Origin: Candidatus Uhrbacteria bacterium
Lineage (GTDB): Bacteria; Patescibacteriota; Patescibacteriia; GWA2-47-26
NCBI GenBank assembly: GCA_016187515.1
Contig: JACPJN010000009.1
Span: forward strand, 68,891 to 132,890
Direction of reading: 5' to 3'
Length of the DNA: 64,000 nt
Below the pieces are notes generated by a model that was not told the origin of the DNA, made no database searches, and saw only the letters and a list, made by a program, of their open reading frames with translations. Of this stretch, positions 428 through 63,993 are shown piece by piece (position 1 is the stretch's first letter; each line of letters begins with the position of its first letter). The translations under genes were made by a program, and so were the position numbers.

Positions 428-2026
428 TCATTTAGATGTTAGCTCTCGAGCAATGTTATCTATATCACCCGCACCCATAACTATGACCACATCGTTAGGC
501 TGGGCAAGCTGCAATAATAACTGCTTGGTTTCTTCGAGATTGCCTCCATATCGGACATCTGCGTAATCTGGGGCCGGAGGCATCTGCGTTATCTTGTCTA
601 CAAGCATACGCGAGTTGACATCCCGCTCTTCCATCCGTCCCTTCACAGCATAAATTTCTGACACGATAACTAAATCCGCCGCGTCTTTTAGCACTTCCAC
701 AAAATCGTTAAACAAATGCTTGGTACGACTGTGCTGGTGCGGCTGAAACACAAGTACGAGCCGCCGTCCGGGATAGGCCTCTCGCGCCGCCTTCATGGTT
801 TCGCGGATCGCGGTGGGATGGTGGGCATAATCGCTAATTACCAAAATTTCCCCGGAGGACTCATAACTCCCCCTCCCCCCTCTTACCTTAAGAGGGGGTA
901 TCGATCGATCTCCCTCCCTTAAGTTAAGGGAGGGTTGGGGTGAGTTATGAACTGCTGACATAGTGCCGACGATTTCAAAACGCCGCCACACACCGCGGAA
1001 ATCACGCACGGCACTTTCCGCTACCTCGCACGGCACGCCCAACTCCATCGCGGCCGTTGCCGCCGCCGTAGCATTGTATCGGTTAAATTCGCCTGGCACT
1101 TGGAGTTGAAGTGTCCCAAAAATTTCACTACTATGCCCATAGGTAATCCGCTTTTCCCCCACTTTGTCATTTCGAGCGAAGCGAGAAATCTCATATCGTG
1201 CAGACGGCAAGGTGTGAGATCCCTCGACTCCGTACTCTGCACTCCGCTCGGGATGACGGGAAATTAGTATGCTACATCCCGCATCATCTTCATTCATCAC
1301 CACCAATCCTTCCGCTGGCACTTTCTTCACTAACTTCTGAAAGCTCTCCACCGTCTGTTCCAAATCCCGAAAATAATCCGGATGATCCCATTCAATACTG
1401 GTTACGACTACCGCATACGGTGATAATTCTAAAAAATGATCACGATAGTCGTCGCCTTCAACGATGAAAAATCTCGCGGATGCACTACGTGCCGCAGATT
1501 GCACAGATGATATATCCGCGTAATTTGCGGGCGCAGCCATCTGCGGAATCCTTATATTGCTATTCCCCCACTCCCTCACTTTGCTCCCCACAATCACGAG
1601 CGGATCCATACCGGCCGCTTCAAGAATAAGTCCGAGCATCGCGGTCGTGGTGCTTTTTCCATGCGTGCCGGTTACCACAATCGTGCGGAACTCACAGCTC
1701 ACCTGCCCCAGTGCCTGGGCATACGACAGCTCCGGAATGCCTCTCGTCCGTGCGGCGGCCCGTTCCGGATGATCTTCCGGCACCGCATCGGAGTAGATCA
1801 CGAGATTAACACCATTCAATAACTGTGAACTGTGAACTGACGACTGTGAACTAAACACTTGAATACCGTCGGATTCAAGTGTTTTAGTTATCTCACTCTC
1901 CTCCGCATCCGACCCACTCACCTGCTTTCCTTGCGCGCGCCAAAGTTGCGCCAGCGCAGATACGCCAATCCCGCCAATGCCGATGCAATGAATTTTTTGT
2001 GCAGTAGAGATGTTCATGTTACTCAT
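428..2026 (-). CDS. murC: UDP-N-acetylmuramate--L-alanine ligase, carrying two in-frame repeat insertions
   Basis: N-terminal KIHCIGIGGIGVSALAQ Rossmann motif, GTHGKSTTTAM P-loop and Mur ligase middle/C-terminal blocks; 532 aa versus about 460 typical because of inserted elements. Confidence 0.9.
   Translation of the reverse strand: MSNMNISTAQKIHCIGIGGIGVSALAQLWRAQGKQVSGSDAEESEITKTLESDGIQVFSSQSSVHSSQLLNGVNLVIYSDAVPEDHPERAAARTRGIPELSYAQALGQVSCEFRTIVVTGTHGKSTTTAMLGLILEAAGMDPLVIVGSKVREWGNSNIRIPQMAAPANYADISSVQSAARSASARFFIVEGDDYRDHFLELSPYAVVVTSIEWDHPDYFRDLEQTVESFQKLVKKVPAEGLVVMNEDDAGCSILISRHPERSAEYGVEGSHTLPSARYEISRFARNDKVGEKRITYGHSSEIFGTLQLQVPGEFNRYNATAAATAAMELGVPCEVAESAVRDFRGVWRRFEIVGTMSAVHNSPQPSLNLREGDRSIPPLKVRGGRGSYESSGEILVISDYAHHPTAIRETMKAAREAYPGRRLVLVFQPHQHSRTKHLFNDFVEVLKDAADLVIVSEIYAVKGRMEERDVNSRMLVDKITQMPPAPDYADVRYGGNLEETKQLLLQLAQPNDVVIVMGAGDIDNIARELTSK
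861..950. mobile_element. GC-rich palindromic MITE-like element (TCATAAC family), in frame in murC
   Basis: TIR TCATAACTCCCC / GGGGTGAGTTATGA flank two hairpins, CCCCCTCTTACCTTAAGAGGGGG and CCCTCCCTTAAGTTAAGGGAGGG; translated in murC as [31 protein letters not shown]. Confidence 0.85.
1822..1855. repeat. 34-nt repeat ACTGTGAACTGTGAACTGACGACTGTGAACTAAA, in frame in murC
   Basis: Identical 34-mer recurs at about 54231-54264 inside uvrC; both encode FSSQSSVHSSQ on the minus strand. Confidence 0.85.
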
Positions 2027-2079
2027 TTAATCACATTCCCTTGTAAAAATCAACCCCTCTGTGCTACACTAAGCATATT

Positions 2080-3333
2080 ATGACGAACTTGGCCCAATAC
2101 GATCCAGACATCGCGCACGCGATTAAAAACGAACTCGAACGTCAAAGAAACGGCTTGGAAATGATCCCGTCGGAAAATTTTGTGTCCCTAGCAGTGCTCG
2201 AGGCCATGGGCACCGTGCCCACTAATAAATACGCCGAGGGCTATCCGGGAAAGCGTTATTACGGCGGCAATCAATTTATTGATGTAATGGAAACGCTGGC
2301 GATTGAACGCGCGAAAAAACTTTTCGGAGCCGAGTATGCCAACGTTCAGCCGCATGCCGGCTCGCAAGCCAACATGGCGGCCTATTTCGCGGTCATGAAA
2401 CCCGGAGAGAAACTTATGGGCATGGCGCTTCCGATGGGCGGACACTTAACCCATGGCCATCCCTTGAGCTTCTCCGGCACGTTTTATCAAGTCGTGCCTT
2501 ATGGCGTACGGCGCGATGGCTGGCTGGATATGGATGAAGTGCGCGCGATCGCGCTTCGCGAAAAACCAAAAGTGCTGGTCTGTGGCGCATCCGCCTATCC
2601 GCGTCTGATTGACTTCAAGGCCTTTGCGCAAATCGCGCACGAAACTGGAGCAGTGGCAATCGCGGATATCGCGCACGTGGCCGGACTAGTGGTTGGCGGC
2701 GCGCATCCGCATCCATTTCCTGAAACCGACATTGTCACCACTACGACGCACAAGACCTTACGCGGCCCGCGCTCCGCGCTTATTTTAGCAAAAGCGCAAT
2801 ATGGCGCGGCCATTGATAAAGCGATTATCCCCGGCCTGCAAGGCGGACCAATGGAACATATCATTGCCGCTAAAGCCGTATGTTTTAAAGAGGCGATGGA
2901 GCCGAGTTTCACGGACTACGCGCGGCGTATCGTGGCTAATGCCAAAGTCCTGGCCGAAACGCTAATGCGTGAAGGACTCACACTGGTCTCCGGCGGCACG
3001 GATAATCATCTGATGCTCATGGATTTAACTGCTCTGAATATGGCCGGCAAACAAGCCGAGGCGCTTCTTGATGAAGTGGGTATTACGGTGAACAAAAATA
3101 TGATTCCGTACGATCCGAGGAAACCCTTAGACCCTTCCGGCATCCGTCTGGGCACACCGGCTTTAACCACGCGGGGTTTCACGGAAGACGACATGAAAAT
3201 CGTGGGCCGTACCATCGCGGAAGTTTTGAAAAATCCAACCAGCGACGATACCAAATCTCGTGCGCGAGAAGTCGTGCGCGGACTTACGGAAAAATATCCG
3301 CTCTATCCCGATCTAAAGTATGCAACTTATTGA
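2080..3333 (+). CDS. glyA: serine hydroxymethyltransferase
   Basis: 417 aa; SHMT motifs [22 protein letters not shown] and THKTLRGPR (PLP lysine region). Confidence 0.95.
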
Positions 3334-4228
3334 CGGGCGTGCGCTTGCGGCAAAAATCCACGCCGAAATAAAAGAGGAAATCCAGCGCCTTAAGATTGTC
3401 CCCGGGCTGGGGGTTATTTTGGTTGGCGAAAATCCGGCTTCCGAGCATTATGTGGAACTAAAAAAGAAAAAAGCGGAAGCGCTGGGTTTTTATGTGGATG
3501 TACGCGCCCTCCCGTCCTCCATCACCCAGGAAGCGCTGCACGCTGAAATTATCAATCTTAATTCTCAATCTTCAATTCACGGCTTTATTTTACAACTCCC
3601 GCTCCCCTCCCGCCTTGATAAGCACGCCGCGCTAAATTTGATTGATCCCAAAAAAGACGCTGACGGTTTGCATCCGCTTAATCTTGGTAATTTGGCGCGT
3701 GGCGCACCGGCTGTAATACCGGCTACGCCCCGCGGAATCCTGGCGCTTATTGAATCCACCGGCACCCGTATTGAAGGCGCGCATGCGGTGGTAGTCGGCC
3801 GCAGTGCGATTGTGGGCCTGCCGACCGCACTGATGCTCACACAGCGCAACGCCACAGTAACCATCTGCCACTCGCACACCAAATCCTTGGCCGCGCATAC
3901 ACAAACCGCAGACATTCTGGTGGTCGCGGCCGGACACCCCGGACTGGTACGCGGCGATATGCTAAAAGGCGGCGCGTGCGTAATTGATGTGGGAAGTACT
4001 CCCACCCCCTCTGAATCTCCCCCTCCAAGAGGGGGAGAACACCGGTCAATTTCCCCCCCTGCCCGAGGGGGGGCGAGGGGGGGTGGGAGTACCAAATGGC
4101 TCGGAGACGTTGATTTCGCCTCCACCCTAAAAAAATCCGGCTTTATCACCCCAGTCCCGGGCGGAGTGGGCCCTATGACTGTCGCGATGCTTTTGAAAAA
4201 TACGATTGAGCTGGCAAAGTCATCCTGA
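3320..4228 (+). CDS. folD: bifunctional methylenetetrahydrofolate dehydrogenase/cyclohydrolase, with an in-frame element
   Basis: [13 protein letters not shown]..., GFILQLPLP and [11 protein letters not shown] motifs typical of FolD; 14-nt overlap with the glyA stop; extra [33 protein letters not shown] loop. Confidence 0.9.
3996..4092. mobile_element. GC-rich MITE-like element (GTACTCCCACC family), in frame in folD
   Basis: TIR GTACTCCCACCCC / GGGGTGGGAGTAC enclose hairpins TCCCCCTCCAAGAGGGGGAG and TCCCCCCCTGCCCGAGGGGGGG. Confidence 0.8.
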
Positions 4229-8018: not shown

Positions 8019-8705
8019 ATGCAATTTCCTCCTCCCATCACCCGTCTGATCCAGCATTTCCGCGCGCTCCCCGGCGTGGGCCCGCGCACGGCCGCGCGTT
8101 TTGTATTCGCGCTATTAAACAAACCCGAAGATGAACTGCGTTCCTTTGGCCATGCCCTGGTTGATCTTAAAGAAAGCATCCGCGTGTGCAAAGCATGTTT
8201 CAACGTATCGCTGGCAAATCCCTGCCAAATTTGCGCGGATCCCAATCGCGATGCCGCCGCGCTTTGCGTGGTCGCCCGACCGCAAGATATCCAAGCCCTT
8301 GAAGAAACCCGGGAATATCATGGTCTCTATCACGTCTTGGGTGGGACGCTTAATCCGATTGAGGGCGTAACGCCGGAACAATTGCGGATTAAGGAATTGC
8401 TGAATAGAATTGATAATCCGCCGCTCCCACCCCTCCTAACCTCCCCTCGGGCAGGGGAGGAAAACGATCGTATTTCTCCCCCTTTTCAAGGGGGAGTTAG
8501 AGGGGGTCAAGACATCCAGGAAATCCTCCTCGCCTTAAACCCGGACCTGGAAGGCGAGGCCACCGCGCTTTACCTGGCCAAACTTCTTAAAGCCCGCGTG
8601 CCGCGCGTCACGCGGCTGGCCCGCGGACTGCCCCAAGGCGCGGACCTGGAATACGCCGACGAGGTAACGCTCATCAACGCGATAAAAGGACGAAGGGAAA
8701 TATGA
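8019..8705 (+). CDS. recR: recombination protein RecR, with an in-frame element
   Basis: MQFPPPITRLIQHFRALPGVGPRTAARFVFALL (HhH), C4 zinc finger CKACFNVSLANPCQIC and Toprim; track ORF starts at 7992 but the RecR alignment favours 8019. Confidence 0.88.
   Translation: MQFPPPITRLIQHFRALPGVGPRTAARFVFALLNKPEDELRSFGHALVDLKESIRVCKACFNVSLANPCQICADPNRDAAALCVVARPQDIQALEETREYHGLYHVLGGTLNPIEGVTPEQLRIKELLNRIDNPPLPPLLTSPRAGEENDRISPPFQGGVRGGQDIQEILLALNPDLEGEATALYLAKLLKARVPRVTRLARGLPQGADLEYADEVTLINAIKGRREI
8423..8508. mobile_element. GC-rich MITE-like element (CTCCCACCCC family), in frame in recR
   Basis: Hairpins CCTCCCCTCGGGCAGGGGAGG and CTCCCCCTTTTCAAGGGGGAG; encodes NPPLPPLLTSPRAGEENDRISPPFQGGVRGGQD. 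Confidence 0.8.
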
Positions 8706-15728: not shown

Positions 15729-15934
15729 ATAGCATGGATGGTTACCCTCACCGCGTTCCTCTCCCCAAGGGAGAGGATGGCCGCAGGCCAGGTGAGGGGG
15801 CAATGGAATTACGAGTGGGAAAATTCTACCATACCCCCGGAATCCTGTCAAACAACAATGTACACCGCAAAAAAAACCGGTTCGTTGAGCTACGAACCGG
15901 TACGCGGCGCGGACGGACTTAGCCGTACTCGCGA

Positions 15935-41036: not shown

Positions 41037-41527
41037 TTTCCCCCCCTCTCGGATAGACCCCTCCTATCCTCCCCTTGGTAAGGGGAGGAAATCGGATCGC
41101 TTCTCCCCCTTTTCAAGGGGGAGGTAGAGGGGGTCCGTAGCTTTCTCCCCCTCTCCGAGGGGGAGTCAGAGGGGGTCAAATGTTGTCTGATCTTTTCTAC
41201 CACTCCGGCAATACTATCTCGCACTTCATTGTCCGTAACACGAATCACTCGAATCCCCCGCTGTTCAATAAACCGCTGTCGCGCGGCATCATGGTCGCCA
41301 GCGCCTGCTTGATAATGACTATCCCCATCAACTTCGATTGCTAATTTTGCGGGATCGCAGTAGAAATCAACCACGTACGGACCAATGCCGTATTGACGAC
41401 GAAATTTGTATCCATCGATATATTCCTTGCGGAGATAATACCATAGGATCTTTTCCGCATGCGTCATCCGATTGCGTAATTGCTGTCGTAATGGTGTTTG
41501 AAGTTCACGATTAAATAATGTTCCCAT
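41033..41527 (-). CDS. DUF559 (Vsr-like endonuclease domain) protein with its C-terminal about 45 aa encoded by a repeat element
   Basis: MTHAEKILWYYLRKEYIDGYKFRRQYGIGPYVVDFYCDPAKLAIEVDGDSH...RQRFIEQRGIRVIRV; tail PSDSPSERGRKLRTPSTSPLKRGRSDPISSPYQGED is the translated hairpin array. Confidence 0.75.
   Translation of the reverse strand: MGTLFNRELQTPLRQQLRNRMTHAEKILWYYLRKEYIDGYKFRRQYGIGPYVVDFYCDPAKLAIEVDGDSHYQAGAGDHDAARQRFIEQRGIRVIRVTDNEVRDSIAGVVEKIRQHLTPSDSPSERGRKLRTPSTSPLKRGRSDPISSPYQGEDRRGLSERGGK
41041..41178. mobile_element. GC-rich MITE-like element array (GACCCCTCCTA family, 3 hairpin modules)
   Basis: GACCCCTCCTATCCTCCCCTTGGTAAGGGGAGG ... CTCCCCCTTTTCAAGGGGGAGGTAGAGGGGGTC ... CTCCCCCTCTCCGAGGGGGAGTCAGAGGGGGTC. 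Confidence 0.8.
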
Positions 41528-41537: not shown

Positions 41538-41661
41538 TAGACCCCTCCTAGCCTCCCCTTGGTAAGGGGAGGAAACGATTCAATTTCTCCCCCTCTCGGA
41601 GGGGGAGGTAGAGGGGGTCCGTAGCTTTCTCCCCCTCTCCGAGGGGGAGGTAGAGGGGGTC
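41538..41661. mobile_element. GC-rich MITE-like element (second copy, near-identical to 41041..41178)
   Basis: GACCCCTCCTAGCCTCCCCTTGGTAAGGGGAGG...GAGGGGGAGGTAGAGGGGGTC, present twice; intergenic between the DUF559 and clpC-like genes. Confidence 0.8.
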
Positions 41662-41665
41662 ATTT

Positions 41666-44353
41666 CTACAACTTCTCCGCTTTCTCTACCCGTAGCTGCC
41701 CGCCTTTTTCAAGGATCACGAGGTCGCGGCGGCCGAGCTTGGCGGTGAGCAGGAGATTCGCCAGGGCGTCGTTGACGCGCTCTTGGATTACGCGCCGCAG
41801 CGGACGGGCGCCGAAAAGCGGATCAAAGCCGGCATGCGCGAGCTCGGAGACGGCCTCATCAGTGGCGCGGAAGGTAATCCCTTTGGCCTCCAGTTGCTTG
41901 CCGACTTTAGCGAGCATCAGTTTCGCGATCTGCACAATCTCGGTCTCGGAAAGCGGTTTGTACACGATCACGGCATCAAAACGGTTTAAAAATTCCGGCC
42001 TAAAGTATTGCTTCAATTCGCGCTCAACAAGCGTTTTCTTGATCTCCTCCAGTGCCGTGCCTTTTTTAAGCTCTTCTTGAATAAACGGCGTCCCCGCGTT
42101 CGAGGTGCCGATAATAATGGTGTTGGTAAAGTCCACGACCCGTCCGGCGCTGTCGGTTACGCGTCCGTCATCCATCACCTGCAAAAACACGTTTAAAATA
42201 TCCGGATGCGCCTTTTCAATCTCGTCTAAGAGCACCAGCGAAAAGGGATTCTTGCGCACCGGCTCGGTAAGCAGTCCCCCATGCTCGCCCGGAGCGCCAA
42301 GCAGGCGATGCACACTGCCCTTATCTTGATACTCGGACATGTCCACGCGGGCCATGTGTGCTTCATTGCCAAAATACACTTCGGCCACGGTTTTCGCCGT
42401 CTCGGTCTTGCCCACCCCGGTGGGTCCCAGAAACAAGAAATTCGCAATCGGCCGCTTTTGTTCGCGAATCTCGGCGCGCGCGCGGCGCAGGGAGGCCGAG
42501 ACGGCTTTGACTGCCTCATCTTGACCAATGATCCGCGCATGCATTATTTTCTCCAGGTTCAAAAGCTTATCTGCCTCGGCCGCGGTAACCGAAGTAACCG
42601 GAACATGCGACTTTGCGGAAATTATTTCCGCAGCATCTTCTCCGCGCACCAATGCTTTCGCCCCCCGCCGATTGCGCACAAGCTCGGCGCTTTCTTTGGC
42701 CATATCAATCGCTTTTTCCGGGAGCGCTTGCTCTTTAAGAAACCGATCCGAAAGCACGACGGCTTTTTCCAGCGCGTTATACGAAAAATACACGCCGCTT
42801 TGGTGTTCAATCGGACCGACTTTGGATTCTAAAATATGTATCGCCGTATTTACCTCGGGCTCTTCCACCTCAATTTTAATACAGGCATTCCCGAGCGGGC
42901 TGCCTTCGATCCGGGCTTGATATTCTTCCGCAGTTGTGGTCGCGATCGCCAAAAAATACCCTTTTTCCAGCTCGGTGGCGAGCGTCTCTCCCAAATCCAG
43001 CCCGGCCCCCGCGCTGGCGCCGATTAATTCATGGACATTGGGCAGCGCCAAAACTACGTTACGCGAACGCGCAATATCATAAACACAAGTCAGCAAGCGC
43101 TCCTGGGCTTGCGCAGGGTTCGCTCCGGAAACTAATTTCGGTATGGATAATGAAACCAGACGGCGATCCTTAAGCGAGCGCGGAACTTCTTCCTCCACCA
43201 TCCGCTGCGCCAGACCATTAAGTATTGCTTCTTTACCAACCCCATGCGGGCCGACTAGAATAATACTTTTTCGCTCGCCCTCCAGAACCCGGAAAATCTC
43301 GTCAAACTCTTTCGCGCGATCAACCGTAAGCTCCAGATAGCCGCGCCCGGCAAGCCGAGTCAGGTCGTCGGAAAAGCGATCCAACGCCCGGGTCTGGAGC
43401 GCGGTCATCGCGCGATTCATCTCGCCTTTTGGACGGCGCGAGGCGGCGCCGCGAAAATGCTTCCAGCGCCGGCGCAATTCTTCGTTAATCTCCAGCCAGC
43501 GGACGGAATTGCGCAATTTTCGTTCGTCAATTCCCAGGTCGAAAAAAATTTCCTTAAGCCGCTCATCCGCCAGCGCTGTTTGGAGGAGTACCTGATGAGC
43601 GCCGACATATTCACTCTGGGCTTGCTGCGCGTCTTGGTAAGCAGTGATAATGATTTGCTTGGCAGTGTCGCCAAAGGTTGGATCACTCCCACCCCTCCCT
43701 CCCACCCCCTCTTGATCTCCCCCTCGGGCAGGGGGAGAGATTCCTCGGGCAGGGGAGGAAACCGCTTTTTCTCCCCCTCTTAAGTTAAGAGGGGGCAGGG
43801 GGGCGTTATGAACCGATTCCAACACATGCTTTAGGCGATCTTGCAATCCTTTCACATCAATCTCCAGTCGCACAAGAAGAGACGCCACTGACGGCGAACC
43901 CAAAAGCGCCCACATCAAATGCGCCGGCGCGACCTCCGCATGCTTTACGCGCGCAGCCGTGCGGTACGCCCCCCGAATCCGGGCGTACACATCTTCGGTC
44001 AGCGCGCGCGATACATCAATGCGCTTCAACCGTTTCTTTCTCCCCCTTACCAAGGGGGAGATTAAGAGGGGGTGCACCTTCTCTTTTTCCTCTCCTCTTC
44101 TTAATAATCTCATCACCAAATACAAATCCGCAATCAATGAAAACGCAAACACCAATTTTCCTCGTCCGCCAAATTGCCAATAGCGCACGGTAAAAATCCG
44201 CTCCACATCAGGCAGCGCTTCTCCCACCAGTGCTACAATTCCCACCACCGCAAAAGCGCTCACGATCGTGAGGAATATCGCGCGAACAAGTTTGCCCACG
44301 CGCTCCCCCGCCAAACCCGCCCGATCAATTTTTGCTCCGAAATAAAGTTCCAT
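41666..44353 (-). CDS. ClpA/ClpB/ClpC-family AAA+ chaperone ATPase with an unusual N-terminal TM segment and two in-frame element insertions
   Basis: Two Clp_N repeats, NBD1 Walker A GPHGVGKEAIL, NBD2 FLGPTGVGKTETAK, sensor LVLLDEIEKAHPDILNVFLQVMDDGRVTD; the start is uncertain (TM region of about 90 aa precedes Clp_N). Confidence 0.8.
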   Translation of the reverse strand: MELYFGAKIDRAGLAGERVGKLVRAIFLTIVSAFAVVGIVALVGEALPDVERIFTVRYWQFGGRGKLVFAFSLIADLYLVMRLLRRGEEKEKVHPLLISPLVRGRKKRLKRIDVSRALTEDVYARIRGAYRTAARVKHAEVAPAHLMWALLGSPSVASLLVRLEIDVKGLQDRLKHVLESVHNAPLPPLNLRGGEKAVSSPARGISPPARGGDQEGVGGRGGSDPTFGDTAKQIIITAYQDAQQAQSEYVGAHQVLLQTALADERLKEIFFDLGIDERKLRNSVRWLEINEELRRRWKHFRGAASRRPKGEMNRAMTALQTRALDRFSDDLTRLAGRGYLELTVDRAKEFDEIFRVLEGERKSIILVGPHGVGKEAILNGLAQRMVEEEVPRSLKDRRLVSLSIPKLVSGANPAQAQERLLTCVYDIARSRNVVLALPNVHELIGASAGAGLDLGETLATELEKGYFLAIATTTAEEYQARIEGSPLGNACIKIEVEEPEVNTAIHILESKVGPIEHQSGVYFSYNALEKAVVLSDRFLKEQALPEKAIDMAKESAELVRNRRGAKALVRGEDAAEIISAKSHVPVTSVTAAEADKLLNLEKIMHARIIGQDEAVKAVSASLRRARAEIREQKRPIANFLFLGPTGVGKTETAKTVAEVYFGNEAHMARVDMSEYQDKGSVHRLLGAPGEHGGLLTEPVRKNPFSLVLLDEIEKAHPDILNVFLQVMDDGRVTDSAGRVVDFTNTIIIGTSNAGTPFIQEELKKGTALEEIKKTLVERELKQYFRPEFLNRFDAVIVYKPLSETEIVQIAKLMLAKVGKQLEAKGITFRATDEAVSELAHAGFDPLFGARPLRRVIQERVNDALANLLLTAKLGRRDLVILEKGGQLRVEKAEKL
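43684..43812. mobile_element. chimeric GC-rich MITE-like element in frame between the two Clp_N repeats
   Basis: Starts CACTCCCACCCCTCC (CTCCCACCCC-type end) and ends GGGGGCGTTATGAA (TCATAAC-type end); 3-4 hairpins; encodes [40 protein letters not shown]. Confidence 0.75.
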
Positions 44354-46574: not shown

Positions 46575-47882
<1,308 letters not shown>

Positions 47883-49012: not shown

Positions 49013-49998
49013 TCGATAACTCTCATCTTCGCGCTCCGGGCGCGCGGATTTATTCTAATCTCGCTATCACTCGGCACCACTGGTTTTTTGGTAAGTATTT
49101 TTAACTTCTGGTCCGGCCACTGCCGAAAAAACTGTTTGACGATCCGATCTTCCAGCGAATGAAACGCGATGACGGCCAGTCGTCCGCCGCGGTGCAGGAT
49201 TTCCACAGCTTGCGGCAGTACGGCTTGCAAAGCGCCCAGCTCATCATTTACCGCAATCCGCAATGCCTGGAAAGTGCGCGTGGCTGGATGCAATCCGCCG
49301 ATCCAGGGCATGCGATCCGCATTGCTCCCACCCCTCCTCGCCTCCCCTCGGGCAGGGGAGGAAAAATCTTTTCTCCCCCTCTCCGAGGGGGAGTTAGAGG
49401 GGGTGTGCTTACTAAGCTTCTCTCTATACGCTTGCACCACCACATCACTCAGTTGTTTGCTGGTCACCATTGGCTTCTTTTTCCGTTCTTCCACAATGCG
49501 GTTCGCGATCTCGCGCGCTAATCGCTCTTCCCCATATTCCGTGAGTAACTCCGCAAGCTGCTTCTGATTCCACGAGTTCACAATTTCTGCCGCGCGCACG
49601 CCGCGCGACACATCAAACCGCATGTCCAGCAGTTCATCCTTCTCAAACGAGAATCCCCTGCCTCGCTCAAGCGTCGAGGAAGAAAATCCTAGATCAAGAA
49701 GTATTCCCTGCACCGTCCCGAATTTTTGCTCCTTCACAATCGCGGCCAAGTTCCGGAAATTATCATTCACGAGCACAATGCGATTCAAGTATTTTCTAAT
49801 TTCGAATTGCGAATTTCTAATTTCAGTGATGGCGTCTGGATCGGCATCTATACCTAGTAATCTTCCAACGGGCGCGGTGTGCTGTAGGATTGCGGCACTA
49901 TGACTGCCATCACCGATCGTGCAATCCACAAAATTCTGATTCGGTTTAGGGTCAAGGAACTTCAGCGCTTCTTCTACCATGACTGGCACATGGGACAT
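49003..49998 (-). CDS. rsmH: 16S rRNA (cytosine1402-N4)-methyltransferase with in-frame insertions
   Basis: MSHVPVMVEEAL, FVDCTIGDGSHS, DLGFSS and AFHSLEDRIVK motifs; inserted HTPSNSPSERGRKDFSSPARGEARRGGSN and EIRNSQFEIRKY segments. Confidence 0.9.
   Translation of the reverse strand: MSHVPVMVEEALKFLDPKPNQNFVDCTIGDGSHSAAILQHTAPVGRLLGIDADPDAITEIRNSQFEIRKYLNRIVLVNDNFRNLAAIVKEQKFGTVQGILLDLGFSSSTLERGRGFSFEKDELLDMRFDVSRGVRAAEIVNSWNQKQLAELLTEYGEERLAREIANRIVEERKKKPMVTSKQLSDVVVQAYREKLSKHTPSNSPSERGRKDFSSPARGEARRGGSNADRMPWIGGLHPATRTFQALRIAVNDELGALQAVLPQAVEILHRGGRLAVIAFHSLEDRIVKQFFRQWPDQKLKILTKKPVVPSDSEIRINPRARSAKMRVIEKL
49325..49406. mobile_element. GC-rich MITE-like element (CTCCCACCCC family) in frame in rsmH
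   Basis: GCTCCCACCCCTCCTCGCCTCCCCTCGGGCAGGGGAGG...CTCCCCCTCTCCGAGGGGGAGTTAGAGGGGGTG. Confidence 0.8.
49786..49835. repeat. AT-rich insertion (TATTTTCTAATTTCGAATTGCGAATTTCTAATTTCAGTG) in frame in rsmH
   Basis: Shares the ATTTCTAATTTCGAAT core with the tgt insertion; low GC island inside a GC-rich CDS. Confidence 0.65.
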
Positions 49999-54449: not shown

Positions 54450-54827
54450 TTATGAACCGTGCTTATCTAGTTCCTCTTTAATCTTCTGCCACACCCCTTC
54501 CAAATTCTGCATCACATCATTATTTCCAAATCGTACTACTTTGATATCTTGTGACGCAAGATATTGTGTCCGCTCATCATCATGCTTTCGATTCGCCTCT
54601 TCCGCATGCTGTCCGCCATCAACTTCTACCGCCAATCTATGTACTGGACAATAAAAGTCAAGCACGTAGAGGCCAACGCTATACTGACGAAAAAACCGCG
54701 CACCCATTTGCTTCCTACTTAATATTCTCCACACGCGCCGTTCGGCCTCCGTTGAATTTTTCCGCAATTCACGGCGCCTTTCTTTTGTGGATTGTCTGTT
54801 ATAAAGATGGTTCATAACCCCCTCCAA
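54450..54827 (-). CDS. stand-alone DUF559 (Vsr-like PD-(D/E)xK endonuclease domain) protein, flanked on both sides by GC-rich hairpin elements
   Basis: RRVWRILSRKQMGARFFRQYSVGLYVLDFYCPVHRLAVEVDGGQH...YLASQDIKVVRF; paralog of 41033..41527; half-elements at about 54414-54457 and 54813-54858. Confidence 0.75.
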   Translation of the reverse strand: MEGVMNHLYNRQSTKERRRELRKNSTEAERRVWRILSRKQMGARFFRQYSVGLYVLDFYCPVHRLAVEVDGGQHAEEANRKHDDERTQYLASQDIKVVRFGNNDVMQNLEGVWQKIKEELDKHGS

Positions 54828-54834: not shown

Positions 54835-57800
54835 TTACCTTAAGGGGGAGAGTACGGATTTCAAATACTTCCCGGTCCACGATCCTTTTGCGCGCGCAAC
54901 TTCCTCCGGTGTCCCGATCGCCACCACTTCCCCGCCCTTATCTCCGCCCTCTGGCCCAAGATCAATGATATAGTCGGCACACTTTATTATGTCAAGATTA
55001 TGCTCGATTACCAGCACAGTATTGCCGGCTTGCACCAGGCGTTGCAATACTTCAATCAATTTCCGCACATCTTCATAATGCAGTCCTACAGTGGGTTCGT
55101 CAAGAATATAAAGAATTCGCCCGCGGCGGCGACCTGCCAGCTCTGTACCCAATTTTACGCGCTGAGCTTCTCCGCCAGAAAGCGTGGTTGCCGATTGTCC
55201 CAGCTCAATGTATCCAAGACCAACTTCACGCAATACTTTAAGCCGATCATGGATGTGCGGAATATCGCGGAAGAAACCGTCCGCTTCCTCGATCGTCATA
55301 GATAGCACGTCAAAAATGTTCTTGCCTTTGTATAATACTTCCAGCGTTTCACGATCAAATCGTTTGCCTTTGCACACATCGCATTTTACATACACCGTTG
55401 GCAAAAAATGCATTTCAATGGCAATCAAACCATTGCCTTCGCAGTTCTCACAACGTCCCCCGCCGCGATGCGTAGACACATTAAAGCTAAACCGGCCCGG
55501 CTTGTATCCACGCATGCGTGACTCCGGAAGCGCGGCAAACAAATCGCGGATATGCGTGAACACGCCAGTGTATGTGGCGGGGTTGCTGCGCGGGGTGCGC
55601 CCTATCGGCGATTGATCTACTTCCACTACCCCATCAAGATATTCCAGGCCCAGAATTGCTTTGTGGCGCCCAGGCACATAGCGCGCCAGATTATACCGAT
55701 TAGCCAGCGCTTTGTACAAAATATCATTGACCAGCGTGCTTTTGCCGGAGCCGGACACGCCGGTAACGCACACGAAACGGCGCAATGGAATTTCCAGTGT
55801 GAGGTTTTTGAGATTATTCTCCGAGGCGCCGACAATTTTGAGACGCTCTTTTGAGTTAGTGCGCCGCGAAACAGGAAGTGGGATTGATTTTTGTCCGGAC
55901 AGGTATTGGAGGGTGAGTGACTCATAACTCCCCTTCGTAACCCCCCTATCCCCCCTTACCCTAAGGGGGGCACGTTTTCGTGTGTCCCCACTTTCAACCC
56001 CCTCCCTTAAGGTAAGGGAGGGCGGGGGTGGGTTATGCAACAACTCCTTCAACTCCCCCTCCACCACAATATGCCCGCCCGCCTTCCCCGCCCCCGGCCC
56101 TAAGTCCACAAGATAGTCAGCCGCGCGAATCGTGGCTGGATCATGCTCTACCACAATCACGGTATTGCCAAGATCACGCAGCTCCAAAAGGGTCTTGATA
56201 AGCCGCTCGTTGTCGCGCTGGTGTAAGCCGATCGTTGGCTCGTCTAGCACATACAATGTTCCGGTTAAGCGCGAGCCAAGCTGGGAAGCCAGCCGAATCC
56301 GCTGGGCCTCACCTCCGGAAAGCGTACCGGCGCGACGATCCAGCGTAAGATAATCCAGTCCAACATCCAGCATAAATTTCAACCGACTGGTTATTTCGCG
56401 CAGCACGGGGAAAGCGATTTCGAATTCGGTATCCGACAGTACGATTTCATAACTCCCCCTACCCCCTCTTACCCTAAGAGGGGGGTTTTGTTTTTCTCCT
56501 CCCCTTAAGGTAAGGGGAGGTTGGGAGGGGTTATGAGCCATGAATCCTAATTGATTGAAAAAATCGTATGCTTCCACAATATTCATTCCGGCAACTTCCA
56601 CAATACTATGTCCGCCAACCTGTACATGCAAACTTTCCTTCCGCAAACGCGCGCCTTTACAAGCTAAGCACACTTTTTCGGAAAAAAGCGACTCGGTGCC
56701 TAAACCATGACACTGCGTACACGCGCCATATGGACTGTTGAATGAAAACAGCCGCGGCTCAATTTCCGGAAATGAAAATCCATCGTCAGGGCAGGAGAAT
56801 TTACTTGACATGATGAGCTCGGAGACCCCCTCTGAATCTCCCCCTCCGAGAGGGGGAGAAACCGATTTTCCTCCCCTACCCGAGGAATCTCTCCCCCTGC
56901 CCGAGGGGGAGATAAAGAGGGGGTGGGAGGGAGGGGTGGGAGCACCTCCACCCACAAGTATTGTCACGACATCGTGTCCGTATTTCAGGGCTGTTTCAAT
57001 CGCTTCAGCCAAATGCGACCGCAGGGCTTTGTTTCCATCAATGGGCCAGCCAATTGGCACACGATCAACCACCAAATCAATCGTATGCGCCTTGTATCGC
57101 GCCAGCACAATGCGCTCTTTTAACTTTTTCAAAACGCCATTAACGCGTACTTCCGCAAATCCTTCGTTATACAAATCGTAAAGCATTTGGTGATACTCGC
57201 CTTTGCGGCCGCGAACTATTGGGGCGAGAACCGTGATAGCGTCAGTGCTCGTAACCCCTCCTGCACCTCCCCTTACCCTAAGGGGAGGAACCGATCGGTC
57301 TCCCTCCCTTAAGGTAAGGGAGGGTTGGGGTGGGTTATGAAGTCGTTCTAGCACAATGTTCACCATTTCTTCAACAGTAAGTTTTTGAATCGGCTTTCCG
57401 CACGCTACGCAATGCGGCCGCCCGACCCGCGCGAAAAGCACCCGCAGATAATCATAAATCTCGGTAATCGTCGCGACGGTGGAGCGCGGATTAGCGCTAT
57501 GCGCTTTTTGATCAATAGAAATCGCGGGCGAGAGTCCTTCAATTTCGTCCACATCCGGCTTATCCATTTGTCCTAAAAACTGCCGGGCGTAGGCGGAAAG
57601 CGACTCCACATACCGGCGCTGGCCTTCAGCAAAAATCGTATCAAATGCCAACGACGACTTTCCTGATCCGGAAAGTCCGGTAAACACAATCAGCTTATTG
57701 CGCGGCAGCGTAAGATCAATGTTTTTTAAATTATGCTCCCGCGCTCCACGGATGACTATTTGATCGCTCATATTGACATCTTCTTTTCTCTGTATTAAAC

Positions 57801-58653: not shown

Positions 58654-58737
58654 GTCCCCTCCCTTAGGTTAAGGGAGGGCAGGGTGGGTTACGAGCGATT
58701 CATAACTCCCCTAACCCCTCTTACCTTAAGAGGGGGA
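58654..58737. mobile_element. two abutting GC-rich element halves at the uvrB 3' end
   Basis: ...CCCTCCCTTAGGTTAAGGGAGGGCAGGGTGGGTTACGAG-CGAT-TCATAACTCCCCTAACCCCTCTTACCTTAAGAGGGGG: the end of one TCATAAC-type element is joined to the start of another. Confidence 0.75.
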
Positions 58738-60933
58738 ATTGTTTGCCGGCTTCTTGCTTTGCTTCCTTAATACTTGTATCTCGTCTCTCAAGATTGCCGC
58801 CAATTCAAACTGCAGCAAATTTGCCGCCTCGCGCATTTGTTTTTCCTTTTCGCGAATCAAGTCATCCGCGCGTCCGCCCTTCGCTTGTGTTTCAAGCTCC
58901 AGCGCTTTTTTCGCCAATTCTTCCTCTTTTCGTTTGGTCAGGCCTTCCGTAATGTCTTTGATGGCTTTTTTAATTGTGCGCGGGGTAATGCCGTGCGCTT
59001 TATTGTAAGCCATTTGCAATTTGCGCCGCCGATCGGTTTCCCGAATTGCCCGCGTGATTGAGCCGGTCATCTGGTCTGCATAAAGCACGACTTGCCCATG
59101 CACATTGCGCGCCGCGCGACCAATGGTCTGGATTAGCGAGGTTTCACTGCGCAAAAATCCTTCTTTATCCGCGTCTAAAATTGCCACGAGCGACACCTCG
59201 GGCAAATCCAGTCCTTCGCGGAGCAAGTTTACACCCACCAATACATCAAATTTACCGCGCCGAAAATCGGTGAGAATCGTAATGCGATCCAGCGTGTCCA
59301 CATCAGAATGCAAATATTGCACTTTTATTTTTAAATCGGCAAGATATTCAGTTAAATCCTCGGCCATTTTCTTGGTCAGGGTGGTTACCATCACCCGCTC
59401 ATGCCTTTTCACACGCTCCTTTACGCGCGCCATCAAATCCTCCACCTGGGATTTAGAAGCCATGGTTACGCCATGACTACGCAATGTCACGCCAGTTGGC
59501 GTCTTGTGGCGTAGTGATGGCGTTTTTGTGGCCTCTACCGCCCCAGTTATAGGGCGTACAATAATTTCTGGATCAACCAGTCCGGTCGGCCGAATAATTT
59601 GCTCCACCACGCCATTTGCTCTTTGCTCTTTGCTCTTGGCCAATTCATATGTTCCTGGCGTGGCCGAAGTATAAATCGTCTGCGGCATACGCGCCTCAAA
59701 TTCCTCAAATTTAAGCGGCCGATTATCAATCGCGCTCGGCAGGCGGAACCCATATTCGATAAGCGCCTGTTTGCGGCTGCGATCACCTTCGTACATCCCC
59801 TGGATCTGGGGAAGCGTTACGTGGGATTCGTCAATAACTAGGAGCCAATCATTAGCACGCTGTCCCCCTCCCCTAACCCCTCCCACCAAGGGAGGGGGAT
59901 TTGTTGTTCCTCCCTCTCCCCTTGTGGGAGAGGGTTGGGGTGAGGGGTAACGCGTGAAATAATCCAACAACGTCTTTGCCGGCTCTCCGGGCGCGCGGCC
60001 ATCAAAATGCCGCGAGTAATTTTCAATGCCATGACAAAATCCAACTTGTGCAATCATTTCCAAATCATAACGCGTGCGCCGTTCCAGCCGCTCGGCTTCC
60101 AGCAGTTTTCCGGTTTTATTAAAATACGCTAACCGATCTTTAAGCTCGGCGCGGATGTCTTTGATGGCGCGCTTGACTTGCGGTTCATCCGCCACATAAT
60201 GTTTGGTTGGAAAAATCCACACCGAGTCCACTTTTTCACGCACTTTTCGGGTTACCGGATCAATCATAATAATCTCCCCGACTTCCTGCGCGCTTAAATC
60301 CACGCGATAAATCATATCGTGATTGGAAGGCATGACTTCAAAAGTTTGTCCCCTCATCCTAAACATTCCACGTTTTACTTCAGCATTCGTACGCGCATAT
60401 TGCATTTTGGTCAGCGTTTTCAAAATATCTACGCGCCCAATAACTTGCCCACGCGTCAATTTCATGGACATTTTCTCATACGTCTCCGGCGATCCAATGT
60501 TGTAAATGCACGAAACCGAGGCCACAATAATTACATCGCGCCGGGTAAGTAGCGCTTGTGTTGCCGCGTGCCGCAACCGATCAATTTCTTCATTAATCAT
60601 GGCTTCTTTTTCAATATAAGTATCCGTGCGCGGCAAATACGCCTCCGGCTGATAGTAATCGTAGTAGGACACAAAATACTCCACCGCGCTGTCCGGAAAA
60701 AACTCCCGATATTCATTGCAAAGCTGGGCCGCCAGCGTCTTGTTATGCGCAATGACTAAAGTCGGCCGCTGGACTTTTTCAATCACATTAGCAATACTGA
60801 AAGTTTTTCCACTGCCCGTAACACCAAGCAAGGTTTGATGCGCGTCGCCACGCTCAAGTCCATCCACGAGTTGCTTAATCGCCCGCGGCTGGTCACCTGC
60901 CGGCTTGAATTTACTTCTGATCCTAAATTTCAT
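58726..60933 (-). CDS. uvrB: excinuclease ABC subunit B with an in-frame element
   Basis: GDQPRAIKQLVDGL, LLGVTGSGKTF, helicase motifs, UvrB/UvrC interaction C-terminus; inserted PSPQPSPTRGEGGTTNPPPLVGGVRGGGQR. Confidence 0.92.
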   Translation of the reverse strand: MKFRIRSKFKPAGDQPRAIKQLVDGLERGDAHQTLLGVTGSGKTFSIANVIEKVQRPTLVIAHNKTLAAQLCNEYREFFPDSAVEYFVSYYDYYQPEAYLPRTDTYIEKEAMINEEIDRLRHAATQALLTRRDVIIVASVSCIYNIGSPETYEKMSMKLTRGQVIGRVDILKTLTKMQYARTNAEVKRGMFRMRGQTFEVMPSNHDMIYRVDLSAQEVGEIIMIDPVTRKVREKVDSVWIFPTKHYVADEPQVKRAIKDIRAELKDRLAYFNKTGKLLEAERLERRTRYDLEMIAQVGFCHGIENYSRHFDGRAPGEPAKTLLDYFTRYPSPQPSPTRGEGGTTNPPPLVGGVRGGGQRANDWLLVIDESHVTLPQIQGMYEGDRSRKQALIEYGFRLPSAIDNRPLKFEEFEARMPQTIYTSATPGTYELAKSKEQRANGVVEQIIRPTGLVDPEIIVRPITGAVEATKTPSLRHKTPTGVTLRSHGVTMASKSQVEDLMARVKERVKRHERVMVTTLTKKMAEDLTEYLADLKIKVQYLHSDVDTLDRITILTDFRRGKFDVLVGVNLLREGLDLPEVSLVAILDADKEGFLRSETSLIQTIGRAARNVHGQVVLYADQMTGSITRAIRETDRRRKLQMAYNKAHGITPRTIKKAIKDITEGLTKRKEEELAKKALELETQAKGGRADDLIREKEKQMREAANLLQFELAAILRDEIQVLRKQSKKPANNSPS
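59864..59952. mobile_element. GC-rich MITE-like element in frame in uvrB
   Basis: CCCCCTCCCCTAACCCCTCCCACCAAGGGAGGGGG...CCTCCCTCTCCCCTTGTGGGAGAGGGTTGGGGTGAGGGGTAACG. Confidence 0.75.
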
Positions 60934-62654: not shown

Positions 62655-62658
62655 AAGC

Positions 62659-63993
62659 TCACCTCCTTTGCAAATTTGATATCCGCACTCCGATTAAACG
62701 GATCAACCGCGTTTTCTTCAAATATGGAATGAGAAGCTTAAGCGCCTCCCGTTTAAGTATTGTACCATCGGCGCTAAAATGCCGCAAGGTGTACGCGGCA
62801 GTATGGGTCTCAAAATTCTCAAACCGCACCCGCATGGTAATCGTACGAAATTGCACGCTTTCCTTTCGCGCCTCATCCATCACCTCATCACACAACTCCA
62901 TAAGTGTGCGCGTCAAAAGGGCTTGGTCCCGTGTGTCAGCCGCAAACGTAGTTTCATGGCCCACGGATTTTGCCTCATATTCCTCAACCACCGGAGAATC
63001 ATCCCGGCCATGCGCGCGGTCAAACAACTCATCACTGCGCGGCAGAGACACCCTCAAGTCCCGAATGGTTTTAATCCCCTGCCGCGCGAGCTGCGCCTCG
63101 GTTTTAGGCCCAATTCCGGGCAATCGGCGCACCGGCAATGGATCTAAAAATTCCTGCACGCGCTCGGGCGTGACCACTGTCAACCCGTCCGGCTTTTTAA
63201 AATCCGAAGCAATTTTGGCAATCAATTTATTTGGTCCGATTCCAATCGAGCAAGTCAATCGTTCGCGCTTCAAAATCTCCATCTTAATCTTTCTCGCAAT
63301 CCTCTCCGCCTCCTCCAACGCATTTCCATAATTCATGATTCGTAATTCATGCTTCATCAACTCAACATACGCTTCGTCCACGGACACCTGTTCCATTGGC
63401 ACACCCCCTCTAACTCCCCCTCGAAGAGGGGGAGAAACGAAACGATTTCCCCCCCTGCCCGAGGGGGGGTGCGGGGGGGTGGGAGCGACCGCGCACTCAA
63501 CCACTTCCTTTACCACCTTCATAATCCGCTCCGACACAATCCCATACAACTTCCCATCCACCGGCAAATACGCGCACTGCGGCGCCGAGCATAATTTCCA
63601 AGCGCGAGAAATCGGCATGGCGCTATGAATTCCAAATTTCCGCGCGGCATAATTTGCCGTCGACACCACGCCGCGGCCTTGGCCTTCCTTCGGATCAGCG
63701 CCTACCACAATGGGGCACCCCTTAAGTTCCGGATGCTCCCTTTCCTCCACTGCCGCAAAAAACGCGTCCATGTCAATATGTAATATTATACGCGCCATAT
63801 ACAACAAAACCCCTTCAAACTGATTCAAAAAATCAAAAGGGCAAAGATACAAAGAGTTTAGGTTTTTGACTTGCCTGCCCCGCACCAAGCTACGCTTTGG
63901 TGCTGGGGCGGAGGCGGAAGACAAACCGGTTGACAGGATACCACCTGCTCTCTGGCTTCGCCCAGTTGCGGCGCAGCCACAACCCGTCCTCAT
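62659..63993 (-). CDS. dinB: DNA polymerase IV (Y-family) with an in-frame element (probable start 63798)
   Basis: MARIILHIDMDAFFAAVEEREHPELKGCPIVVG, SIDEAYVEL-like and GIGPKTEAQL motifs; inserted [30 protein letters not shown]. Confidence 0.9.
   Translation of the reverse strand: MRTGCGCAATGRSQRAGGILSTGLSSASAPAPKRSLVRGRQVKNLNSLYLCPFDFLNQFEGVLLYMARIILHIDMDAFFAAVEEREHPELKGCPIVVGADPKEGQGRGVVSTANYAARKFGIHSAMPISRAWKLCSAPQCAYLPVDGKLYGIVSERIMKVVKEVVECAVAPTPPHPPSGRGGNRFVSPPLRGGVRGGVPMEQVSVDEAYVELMKHELRIMNYGNALEEAERIARKIKMEILKRERLTCSIGIGPNKLIAKIASDFKKPDGLTVVTPERVQEFLDPLPVRRLPGIGPKTEAQLARQGIKTIRDLRVSLPRSDELFDRAHGRDDSPVVEEYEAKSVGHETTFAADTRDQALLTRTLMELCDEVMDEARKESVQFRTITMRVRFENFETHTAAYTLRHFSADGTILKREALKLLIPYLKKTRLIRLIGVRISNLQRR
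63403..63487. mobile_element. GC-rich MITE-like element (CTCCCACCCC family, reverse orientation) in frame in dinB
   Basis: ACACCCCCTCTAACTCCCCCTCGAAGAGGGGGAG...TTCCCCCCCTGCCCGAGGGGGGGTGCGGGGGGGTGGGAGCG. Confidence 0.8.

Follow-up and report, generated by a model that had tools for sequence, protein, structure and literature searches.

In-frame GC-rich palindromes in a Candidatus Uhrbacteria genome resemble BoxC/PIT/TMECO repeats and are linked to small DUF559 genes

The BoxC/PIT/TMECO repeats have been recognized in Escherichia coli since the 1990s without a known origin, mobility gene, or function (for BoxC/PIT: Bergler 1992 and Hoyne 2000, as cited by Holder et al. 2015, PMC4666352). In E. 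coli K-12, TMECO was reported to be always intergenic, with no transposase, integrase, or other mobility activity nearby (Holder et al., PMC4666352); the element also forms triplexes in vitro and marks variable regions (PMC4666352). Other described palindromes include the REPIN form of repetitive extragenic palindromic (REP) sequences, whose spread or maintenance is thought to be driven by RAYTs, tyrosine transposases associated with REP (PMC3337134), and the Rickettsia palindromic elements (RPEs), which are already known to be inserted in frame (PMC10969869). Here we compare with these systems the GC-rich nested palindromes of a 64-kb stretch of DNA (the window, i.e., the whole stretch that was analyzed and the share of the source genome that was covered) from a metagenome-assembled genome (MAG) of Candidatus Uhrbacteria, a groundwater bacterium of the Candidate Phyla Radiation (CPR; Patescibacteria) with a small genome. 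The palindromes were found at 21 loci, most of them within conserved genes, and two small genes of the DUF559 family were found to be bounded by element ends. We consider it probable that small DUF559 genes have BoxC/PIT/TMECO-type palindromes as their cognate elements, in a REPIN/RAYT-like partnership that is built on a different kind of nuclease.

The repeats are real. An initial annotation of the window had described at least 20 copies assembled from hairpin modules with C5/G5 stems, and this count was borne out by the 21 loci. Direct-repeat families D2 to D11 (5 to 12 copies each) recovered all the modules it had quoted. When one mismatch was allowed, TCATAACYCCCC occurred 13 times versus 0.5 expected, a count not attained in any of 100 shuffles. 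Perfect C-rich hairpins (6- to 8-bp stem, 9-nt loop) were scanned for, and about 39 modules were detected, with 32 of these within 41–64 kb and none in dnaB, glyA, prs, or the ABC-F gene, as had been noticed. The view that the element type was undescribed did not hold, as the elements have the three-block design of BoxC/PIT/TMECO: the exact TMECO consensus, CCCTCNCCC N3-6 GGGNGAGGG N3 GGGNGAGGG, was matched at 59912–59946 in uvrB (0 expected), and further copies in the window were identified by a relaxed three-block scan. Rfam, applied to the whole window at gathering threshold, returned one tRNA (19992–20064) and no intron or ribozyme match; thus, the elements are explained by no known RNA family.

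A common design was found in all families, in which a C-rich block and a G-rich block form an outer stem around one to three hairpins, each composed of a C/T arm and a G/A arm that fold as a 10-bp stem with a 3-nt loop. Family A reads TCATAAC-YCCCC, hairpin, spacer of about 13 nt, hairpin, GGGGNG-GTTATGA; its clean copies are exactly 90 nt (30 codons), apart from a single copy of 117 nt. The outer stems of families B and C are based on ACCCCYTC/GARGGGGT. All half elements show a hairpin plus a G block. Terminal inverted repeats are present as outer stems of 9–13 bp, and element lengths are 45–127 nt. When six elements were folded as single-stranded DNA with Watson-Crick pairs only, three-way junctions were obtained, with z-scores of −2.5 to −6.9 versus shuffles (five of the six at −3.4 or lower, and the three-hairpin copy at −2.5). 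The elements and the DUF559 genes are as follows (coordinates in the window, strand, description).

861..950, +: murC, in-frame family A element of 90 nt made up of TCATAAC-C block, hairpin 1, spacer, hairpin 2, and G block-GTTATGA
3996..4092, +: family B element in frame in folD, with outer stem CTCCCACCCC...GGGGGTGGGAG and two hairpins
8423..8510, +: recR, in-frame family B/C element within the Toprim domain
15744..15800, +: BoxC-like nested palindrome CCCTCACC..CCTCTCCC..GGGAGAGG..GGTGAGGG, in an N-terminal extension or the 5′ leader of the L21 gene
41033..41527, −: DUF559 gene 1, 164 aa (PF04480, E = 1.6e-30), its last ~45 codons running through a three-hairpin element
41055..41178, +: family C three-hairpin element that makes up the 3′ end of DUF559 gene 1
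41539..41662, +: family C three-hairpin element, a direct repeat of 41055–41178; intergenic, just upstream of DUF559 gene 1 and past the clpC stop
43685..43811, +: clpC-like gene, in-frame composite element (B plus A-half)
44025..44073, +: clpC-like gene, in-frame element with a single hairpin
47173..47262, +: tgt, in-frame family A element of 90 nt
49324..49406, +: rsmH, in-frame family B/C element; no copy in the orthologues of relatives L191 and L192
53221..53269, +: single-hairpin element in frame in uvrC; no copy in L192
53908..53998, +: family A element in frame in uvrC; no copy in L192
54408..54455, +: half element directly adjoining DUF559 gene 2 at its 3′ end (gene strand: TCATAAC-C block plus hairpin)
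54450..54815, −: DUF559 gene 2, 121 aa, between uvrA and uvrC; empty site in L192
54812..54852, +: half element (gene strand: hairpin plus G block-GTTATGA) that gives the uvrA stop (in the loop) and the ATG of DUF559 gene 2
55922..56038, +: uvrA insert 4 (residues 584–615 of the protein, P0001), an in-frame family A element of 117 nt
56447..56536, +: uvrA insert 3 (residues 410–442), an in-frame family A element of 90 nt; present in L193, not in L191 or L192
56822..56945, +: uvrA insert 2 (residues 275–316), an in-frame family B element
57249..57340, +: uvrA insert 1 (residues 146–175), an in-frame family A element; common to L191, where a compensatory stem change preserves the hairpin
58655..58740, +: head-to-head pair of half elements, hairpin-GTTACGA gcgat TCATAAC-hairpin, with the layout of a DUF559 cassette and no ORF; includes the uvrB stop
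59868..59950, +: A-like element in frame in uvrB; 59912–59946 is the exact match to the E. coli TMECO/BoxC consensus
63397..63487, +: dinB, in-frame family B element; the L191 orthologue is largely without the copy

The host genes were identified by Pfam as murC 428–2026(−), folD 3320–4228(+), recR 7992–8705(+), clpC-like 41666–44353(−), tgt 46575–47873(−), rsmH 49003–49998(−), uvrC 52924–54411(−), uvrA 54835–57918(−), uvrB 58726–60933(−), and dinB 62659–63993(−). The genic status of the small copy at 15744–15800 is insecure; it lies in an N-terminal extension of the L21 gene or upstream of it.

The DUF559 genes are the sole genes of the window bounded by element ends, and each of the two paralogues is paired with a different dispersed repeat family. 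Gene 1 is flanked by two direct copies of the family C three-hairpin element, one of which encodes its C-terminal tail. Gene 2 was found by tblastn with the gene 1 protein (37% identity, E = 4e-25) at 54450–54815(−), between uvrA and uvrC; the open reading frame (ORF) at 58043–58546, previously taken to be the second DUF559 gene, has no Pfam match. Gene 2 also matched 3hrl, the closest solved structure (E = 1e-16), and NF007294 (E = 2e-23), and residues D53, E64, D66, and H70 were invariant in DUF559 alignment A2, the two products being predicted Vsr-like PD-(D/E)XK nucleases. The initial annotation had placed the highest repeat density around the DUF559 genes, which is correct but incomplete: both genes are embedded between element halves or whole elements, and this is the more important finding. 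Searches of defense-system libraries with DUF559 gave only weak nuclease-domain similarity to DpdF and a methyl-directed restriction endonuclease.

Gene 2 and its flanks form a precisely bounded cassette. The order on the coding strand is uvrA, hairpin (with the uvrA stop in its loop), GGGGGTTATGA, DUF559 ORF, TCATAAC, C block, hairpin, and uvrC start, with the ATG of gene 2 inside GGGGGTTATGA and its TAA stop inside TCATAAC. The donation of the uvrA stop codon by an element was thus correctly recognized earlier (54835–54837, in the hairpin loop), and the uvrB stop codon (58726–58728) also lies in a hairpin loop, at an ORF-less head-to-head cassette, GTTACGA gcgat TCATAAC, at the 3′ end of uvrB. 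In L192, the uvrC ATG comes directly after the uvrA stop, which indicates that the whole cassette was either inserted here or lost in L192; the half elements are missing from this empty site as well, hence the whole cassette and not the ORF alone was moved or lost.

Such a layout would also be expected of a homing-endonuclease-like selfish gene that targets head-to-head half-element junctions and inserts copies of itself there, with the palindromes spreading otherwise (by host recombination, hairpin-primed synthesis, or another enzyme). The ORF of gene 2 fills exactly the space from GTTATGA to TCATAAC, an ORF-less junction of the same design is present at 58655–58740, L192 has the empty site, Vsr-like domains are found in known homing endonucleases (PMC3424549), and the E. 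coli DUF559 gene, ycjD, is found in 62% of genomes only. However, homing would leave unexplained (i) why each DUF559 paralogue has its own dispersed family; and (ii) why the BoxC number falls in E. coli genomes that lack ycjD (see below); moreover, the window carries two divergent single copies (37% identity) rather than the many near-identical ones that a gene in active homing would be expected to have. We therefore regard a homing gene as an unlikely explanation and retain the cognate-repeat reading.

The pairing of DUF559 with these palindromes was also found in other genomes. A terminus pattern (hairpin arm plus G block plus GTTAYGA) was scanned against one genome per species, with 8-kb loci, and gave at least 110 loci, with a full hairpin in almost all of the matches listed. 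The loci among the matches listed came from Nitrospirae, Desulfuromonadales/Geobacteraceae, Desulfobulbaceae, Patescibacteria/Saccharibacteria, Gammaproteobacteria, Chloroflexota, and Planctomycetota. A DUF559 homologue was present in 8 of 110 pattern loci listed, and element termini were again found to form the ends of the gene: GTTATGA supplies the DUF559 ATG in L012, L064, and L076; the DUF559 stop is the TAA of TAACCCC in L092 and L083; and in L076 and L003, the DUF559 ORF continues into the C arm and stops at a TAA in the hairpin loop. The converse survey was based on 80 metagenomic loci collected by DUF559 protein motifs only. A C-rich hairpin was located at most 150 nt upstream of the DUF559 ORF in 68 of 79 loci (86%) and downstream in 44 of 70, compared with 25 of 567 control windows (4%) at least 400 nt away from DUF559, and the start codon was within GGGnGTTATGA in 29 of the 80 loci. 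DUF559 genes and the repeats are, in summary, physically linked across phyla.

The initial annotation had called the elements MITE-like, and ordinary MITEs (miniature transposable elements with inverted repeats), mobilized in trans by a transposase of the IS200/IS605-RAYT type or another type encoded elsewhere, would make the DUF559 genes passive neighbors of piled-up elements. The small size, terminal inverted repeats, and hairpins are as this label implies, in many genomes the elements form clusters and are frequently in head-to-head contact, and a transposase could lie outside the 64 kb. Yet the label was not sustained, since no transposase-bearing parent element and no target-site duplication were seen: the latter was not visible at the four aligned uvrA sites, where filled and empty relatives could be compared, nor at the flanks of the seven family A copies. 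A Pfam and ORF survey detected no transposase in the window, none was noticed beside elements in the other loci, and no transposase or integrase was reported near any TMECO site (Holder et al., PMC4666352). Element termini form DUF559 start and stop codons in several phyla, and passive neighborhood does not predict a hairpin enrichment of 86% versus 4% for one gene family. Mobilization as ordinary MITEs thus appears rather improbable.

Insertion into coding sequence was likewise not confined to the window, as 38 of 113 pattern matches listed fell in open frames of at least 150 codons. The in-frame hosts in Nitrospirae and relatives included valyl-tRNA synthetase, nitrogenase-like proteins, CbiG-CbiF, and a MiaB-like enzyme, all with a shared element-derived peptide. 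At L103:1300-3348 (Nitrospiraceae), an element is positioned exactly between the CbiG C-terminal domain and the tetrapyrrole methylase domain in one 683-codon frame, and could be fusing two genes. Separately, a small GIY-YIG ORF (98 aa) was observed between GTCATTCCCG...CGGGAATCCA palindromes on both sides in a Parcubacteria genome and in a Thermodesulfobacteriota genome (L193:5573-5990 and the L076 match at 2614-2880), and the same palindrome encodes VIPVKTGIH...SGMT inserts at two UvrA loops of relative P0004. This pairing runs parallel to that of DUF559 and may point to a general rule.

The prototype of the DUF559 family, ycjD of E. coli K-12, was found to have a copy of BoxC, a repeated G/C-rich nested palindrome, 170 nt downstream. 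This BoxC fits the TMECO consensus and occurs at a median of 19 places per E. coli genome. In K-12 (L194:11190-11810), we also observed that a perfect 17-bp hairpin holds the GTG start of ycjD in its right arm, that the last ycjD codons (SPSP, stop) enter a decayed BoxC C arm, and that a partial duplicate of the gene's own 3′ end follows downstream and then the intact BoxC. Among complete E. coli genomes, 3,378 of 5,426 (62%) carry ycjD; in one B2 E. coli, an efflux cluster replaces the locus, which is therefore uninformative as an empty site. When other BoxC places were counted in a spread sample of 60 genomes, those with ycjD had 10–26 (median 18) and those without had 1–16 (median 5; Mann-Whitney p = 8e-10, a comparison confounded by phylogeny). 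BoxC number thus tracks ycjD in E. coli. Named YcjD homologues came from E. coli, Shigella, Enterobacter, Kluyvera, Klebsiella, and allies, with none from Salmonella, and Salmonella is reported to be without TMECO (PMC4666352). The Enterobacter asburiae homologue occupies a different chromosomal site, and its 3′ end reads ...CCCTCACCC CGG CCCTCTCCC TGA AA GGGAGAGGG..., which puts its stop codon inside the loop of a perfect reverse TMECO, with a forward TMECO coming next (a TMECO doublet). This is the same configuration as that of the CPR window.

Within the window, 16 of the 21 loci are inside ORFs, and the hosts listed by the initial annotation (murC, folD, recR, clpC, tgt, rsmH, uvrA with four copies, uvrB, uvrC, and dinB) were all recovered. 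The host frame is open in 16 of 16 genic copies, so that the Pro/Gly/Arg/Ser-rich peptides quoted from them lie in frame and are probably translated. As claimed, each of the three forward frames of family A is interrupted by stops, and exactly one of its reverse frames is open; this open frame is in every case that of the host. The suspected selection for an open frame is evident in that seven of seven genic family A copies use the one open frame of six (chance of ~4e-6); such a bias is the residue expected of selection on random insertion and speaks for translation of the inserts. In families B and C, several frames are open, and these families are present in both orientations relative to their host genes, with similar Pro-then-Gly peptides in either orientation because the elements are palindromic.

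Comparison with orthologues, which had been proposed as a check, revealed that the inserts are missing from most relatives, both in the uvrA alignment and at the uvrB, uvrC, dinB, and rsmH synteny loci of three relatives. The in-frame insertions were, in other words, gained at new sites and filtered by frame. The window UvrA is ~120 aa longer than typical orthologues (842–870 aa), and its four inserts of ~30–40 residues each fall at alignment columns that are empty in most of these. Their distribution is patchy: some are common to the closest relatives, L192 lacks essentially all of them, and in others unrelated repeat peptides occupy the same loops. Insert boundaries were clean in the DNA alignment of the four uvrA sites with three relatives, and the hairpins of copies at orthologous sites were kept through compensatory changes in species with ~80% UvrA identity. 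Shared orthologous copies with such changes indicate that the inserts are old and stable and are not assembly artefacts.

In comparison with solved structures, the Tgt insert is extra sequence between conserved blocks (query residues 202–234 have no counterpart in solved Tgt structures), and the FolD insert was placed between residues 234 and 241 of the solved FolD 4a5o. In an AlphaFold2 model of UvrA, which was mediocre (12 aligned sequences, mean predicted local distance difference test [pLDDT] score of 64), the four inserts were the longest coil segments with pLDDT < 50 and were positioned between confident elements, which supports their being predicted unstructured excursions.

Alternatively, these segments could be ancestral low-complexity protein, assembly artefacts, or intervening sequences that are removed from the transcript or protein. 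No positive evidence for any of these was found. Orthologues are without the segments, orthologous copies are common to independent assemblies, and a 38-nt stretch at 54417–54454, beside DUF559, is identical to 57302–57339 in an unrelated gene. Rfam gave no intron or ribozyme match, and the open frame that is seen in 16 of 16 genic copies would be dispensable if the segments were spliced out. We consider this group of explanations extremely improbable.

Other inserts were noticed in the same proteins. Tgt residues 110–133 and 334–361 have no counterpart in solved structures and may be other kinds of insert. In uvrB, an unrelated nested palindrome, ACGCCATCACTACGC...GCGTAGTCATGGCGT, is in frame as TKTPSLRHKTPTGVTLRSHGVT (59443–59544); it is single-copy in the window and is not in the L192 orthologue. 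In the UvrA, UvrB, and UvrC of P0004, P0005, L191, and L193, the same loops are filled by ERSEGS..., SDEIASPRKRSGLAMT, and SPVLRTSSPSGRGQGEG; the occurrence of various repeat peptides at the same loops in different lineages suggests that these loops are recurrent landing sites for several palindrome families. DNA-repair genes (uvrA, uvrB, uvrC, dinB, and recR; ~15% of coding DNA) hold 10 of the 16 genic copies (binomial p = 2e-5), an excess that is confounded with nearness to DUF559 gene 2; the uvr genes of relatives are loaded with other repeats too.

Palindromy is upheld in the DNA itself. Among 36 hairpin modules, changes on both sides (C-G to T-A) were seen at 8 of the 10 stem pairs, with no one-sided changes and no G-T pairs at stem pairs 2–10. 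These two-sided changes without G-T intermediates indicate that complementarity is kept as DNA and not in the wobble-tolerant manner of RNA. The strictly Watson-Crick stems, the compensatory changes at orthologous copies, the very G/C-rich composition, and the TMECO triplexes in vitro and marking of variable regions (PMC4666352) would also suit triplex or cruciform structures that are useful to the host in recombination, replication, or expression and not strictly mobile, with the Vsr-like DUF559 protein correcting T/G mismatches in extruded hairpins and so keeping the stems perfect and G/C rich. Against this, copies were gained at new sites in conserved genes of single lineages and are thus mobile, and host function does not explain the in-frame invasion of about ten essential genes. 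A host-structure role in this sense is very improbable.

We return to the reading that DUF559 genes and these palindromes are partners. According to the mechanism that we propose, palindrome copies would have been inserted throughout the small Uhrbacteria genome, and the survivors would be those that landed in tolerant protein loops, in a stop-free phase and orientation, where they may be translated as Pro/Gly/Arg/Ser-rich loops of ~30 residues. Element halves or whole elements bound each DUF559 gene and give its start and stop codons. By analogy with RAYT and REP/REPIN, the nuclease would recognize and cut the hairpin, cruciform, or triplex form of the palindrome, and this cutting may spread the palindromes, maintain them, or both. 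That DUF559 recognizes and nicks its own flanking palindromes in one of these forms, thereby driving their spread or maintenance, is a proposal to which we give about even chances.

Several points weigh against the partnership. The E. coli correlation is confounded by phylogeny, as genomes without ycjD belong to few clades, and O157-type genomes retain 12–14 BoxC copies without ycjD. The metagenomic survey covers only the DUF559 clade nearest the query (43–63% identity). DUF559 is not known to act on these repeats as a nuclease or in transposition, the DUF559 fold is that of a repair or restriction nuclease and not of a recognized transposase, and the four aligned uvrA sites bear no target-site duplication or other footprint of a defined mechanism. 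The linkage could also arise from repeats that prefer to insert beside each other and the gene, or from a gene that parasitizes the repeats. In addition, we infer translation of the inserts from the conservation of their frame.

Further repeats of the window are distinct from these elements. At 7924–8010 and 48908–48995, six 9-nt units (GTAAATCAA/G) form an array that has an inverted partial copy after it, and one of the two arrays is situated directly upstream of the start of recR. The stretch 37296–37359 is a tandem array of 8-nt units (AACCCAAT/TACCTAAT type) and lies just 3′ to a 626-aa ORF without a Pfam match (stop end 37364). Five copies of a motif of ~45 nt, A-rich plus a GACCCGCCC...GGAGCGGATCGG hairpin (23366, 26314, 28186, 29256, and 29888), adjoin the ends of long ORFs, which suggests an intergenic, terminator-type hairpin family. 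Perfect palindromes of 34–38 bp at 20288–20325, 34040–34069, and 50706–50739 are unrelated to the C/G hairpin families.

In-frame palindromes as such, and the BoxC/PIT/TMECO class of motif, were already known. Compared with the searchable literature, what appears to be new is that this class (i) is massively intragenic and, as its reading frames suggest, translated; (ii) is present in CPR and several other phyla; (iii) is tightly associated with DUF559 genes; and (iv) depends in number on ycjD in E. coli, with the phylogenetic confounding stated above. Our literature search found no paper that links DUF559, COG2852, or YcjD to repeats, or that describes in-frame palindromes in Patescibacteria. 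DUF559 has been listed as enriched among predicted targets of programmed inversion, which fits flanking inverted repeats (PMC9881135). The 'multicopy nucleotide sequences' of Geobacter occur within genes (PMC2700814, PMC2996986), and the motifs of this analysis were not found in the supplements searched from those reports (PMC2700814, PMC2996986).

YcjD, an E. coli protein of unknown function, is now a specific candidate partner of BoxC/PIT/TMECO. If the link is causal, it would constitute a new nuclease-repeat partnership comparable to RAYT/REPIN and would provide a role for DUF559, a very large orphan family. A broader proposal, which we advance tentatively and with a little less than even confidence, is that small DUF559 nucleases are the missing partner enzymes of BoxC/PIT/TMECO-type palindromes throughout bacteria, forming a second REPIN/RAYT-like class (PD-(D/E)XK, domesticated or selfish) that can write loops of 30 residues into essential proteins of several phyla. 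In-frame palindromes that invade essential proteins are not confined to Rickettsia and are widespread in CPR bacteria, Nitrospirae, and Desulfuromonadales, which bears on the statistics of protein length and 'insertions' in reduced genomes, on the annotation of MAG proteins, and on the origin of surface loops.

When set beside the known systems, the window was found to share features with each. The likeness to Rickettsia that the initial annotation had drawn is upheld in another lineage, with in-frame palindromes that yield a conserved peptide in unrelated conserved genes. As in the RPEs (Ogata et al. 2000, as described in PMC10969869), which are palindromes of ~100–150 bp, the insertions are in frame in housekeeping genes and are tolerated in the protein; in contrast, the hosts here are CPR, Nitrospirae, and Desulfuromonadales, and the elements are very G/C rich, shorter (90 nt), built of modular hairpins, and linked to a nuclease. 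The C5/G5 modules are unlike RPE-1 to RPE-10, going by description only. To our knowledge, no partner gene is known for the RPEs. Like bacterial MITEs (Correia, ERIC, Nezha, and Coxiella QMITE; PMC10969869, PMC5896051), the elements are small, with terminal inverted repeats, stable hairpins, and a capacity for insertion into genes in frame, which in MITEs is occasional; they differ in being modular nested palindromes for which no parent insertion sequence with matching ends was seen. Free-standing homing endonuclease genes (PMC3424549) share the small nuclease ORF in a precisely bounded symmetric slot and the presence or absence among relatives, here of the whole cassette, whereas DUF559 has no intron or intein context, its flanking half-sites are a dispersed multicopy repeat, and it is known here from sequence alone.

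The closest parallels are to REP/REPIN-RAYT and BoxC/PIT/TMECO. With the former (PMC3116915, PMC3337134, PMC2817692), the window has in common the hairpin modules arranged as inverted doublets, a small and usually single-copy partner gene flanked by its own repeat type, and the pairing of different paralogues with different repeat families. The partner is, however, a Vsr-like PD-(D/E)XK nuclease by prediction (PF04480) rather than the HUH-Y1 transposase of RAYT, and REP sequences are extragenic and carry a GTAG/CGTC tag, whereas the window elements are largely intragenic and have no such tag (heads TCATAAC/GTTATGA). With BoxC/PIT/TMECO, the likeness includes the three blocks (a C arm, a G arm, and another G block), which are frequently doubled to give a nested palindrome (PMC4666352), along with tens of copies per genome, high conservation, and wide phyletic spread. 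The E. coli BoxC is without the features of the dominant window families, namely the 7-bp C/T arms, the TTAAGGTAA-type loops, and the TCATAAC/GTTATGA heads. The window copies differ from BoxC/PIT/TMECO as described in that they are mostly inside genes and in frame (16 of 21 loci), and in that a candidate partner gene, DUF559, has been identified.

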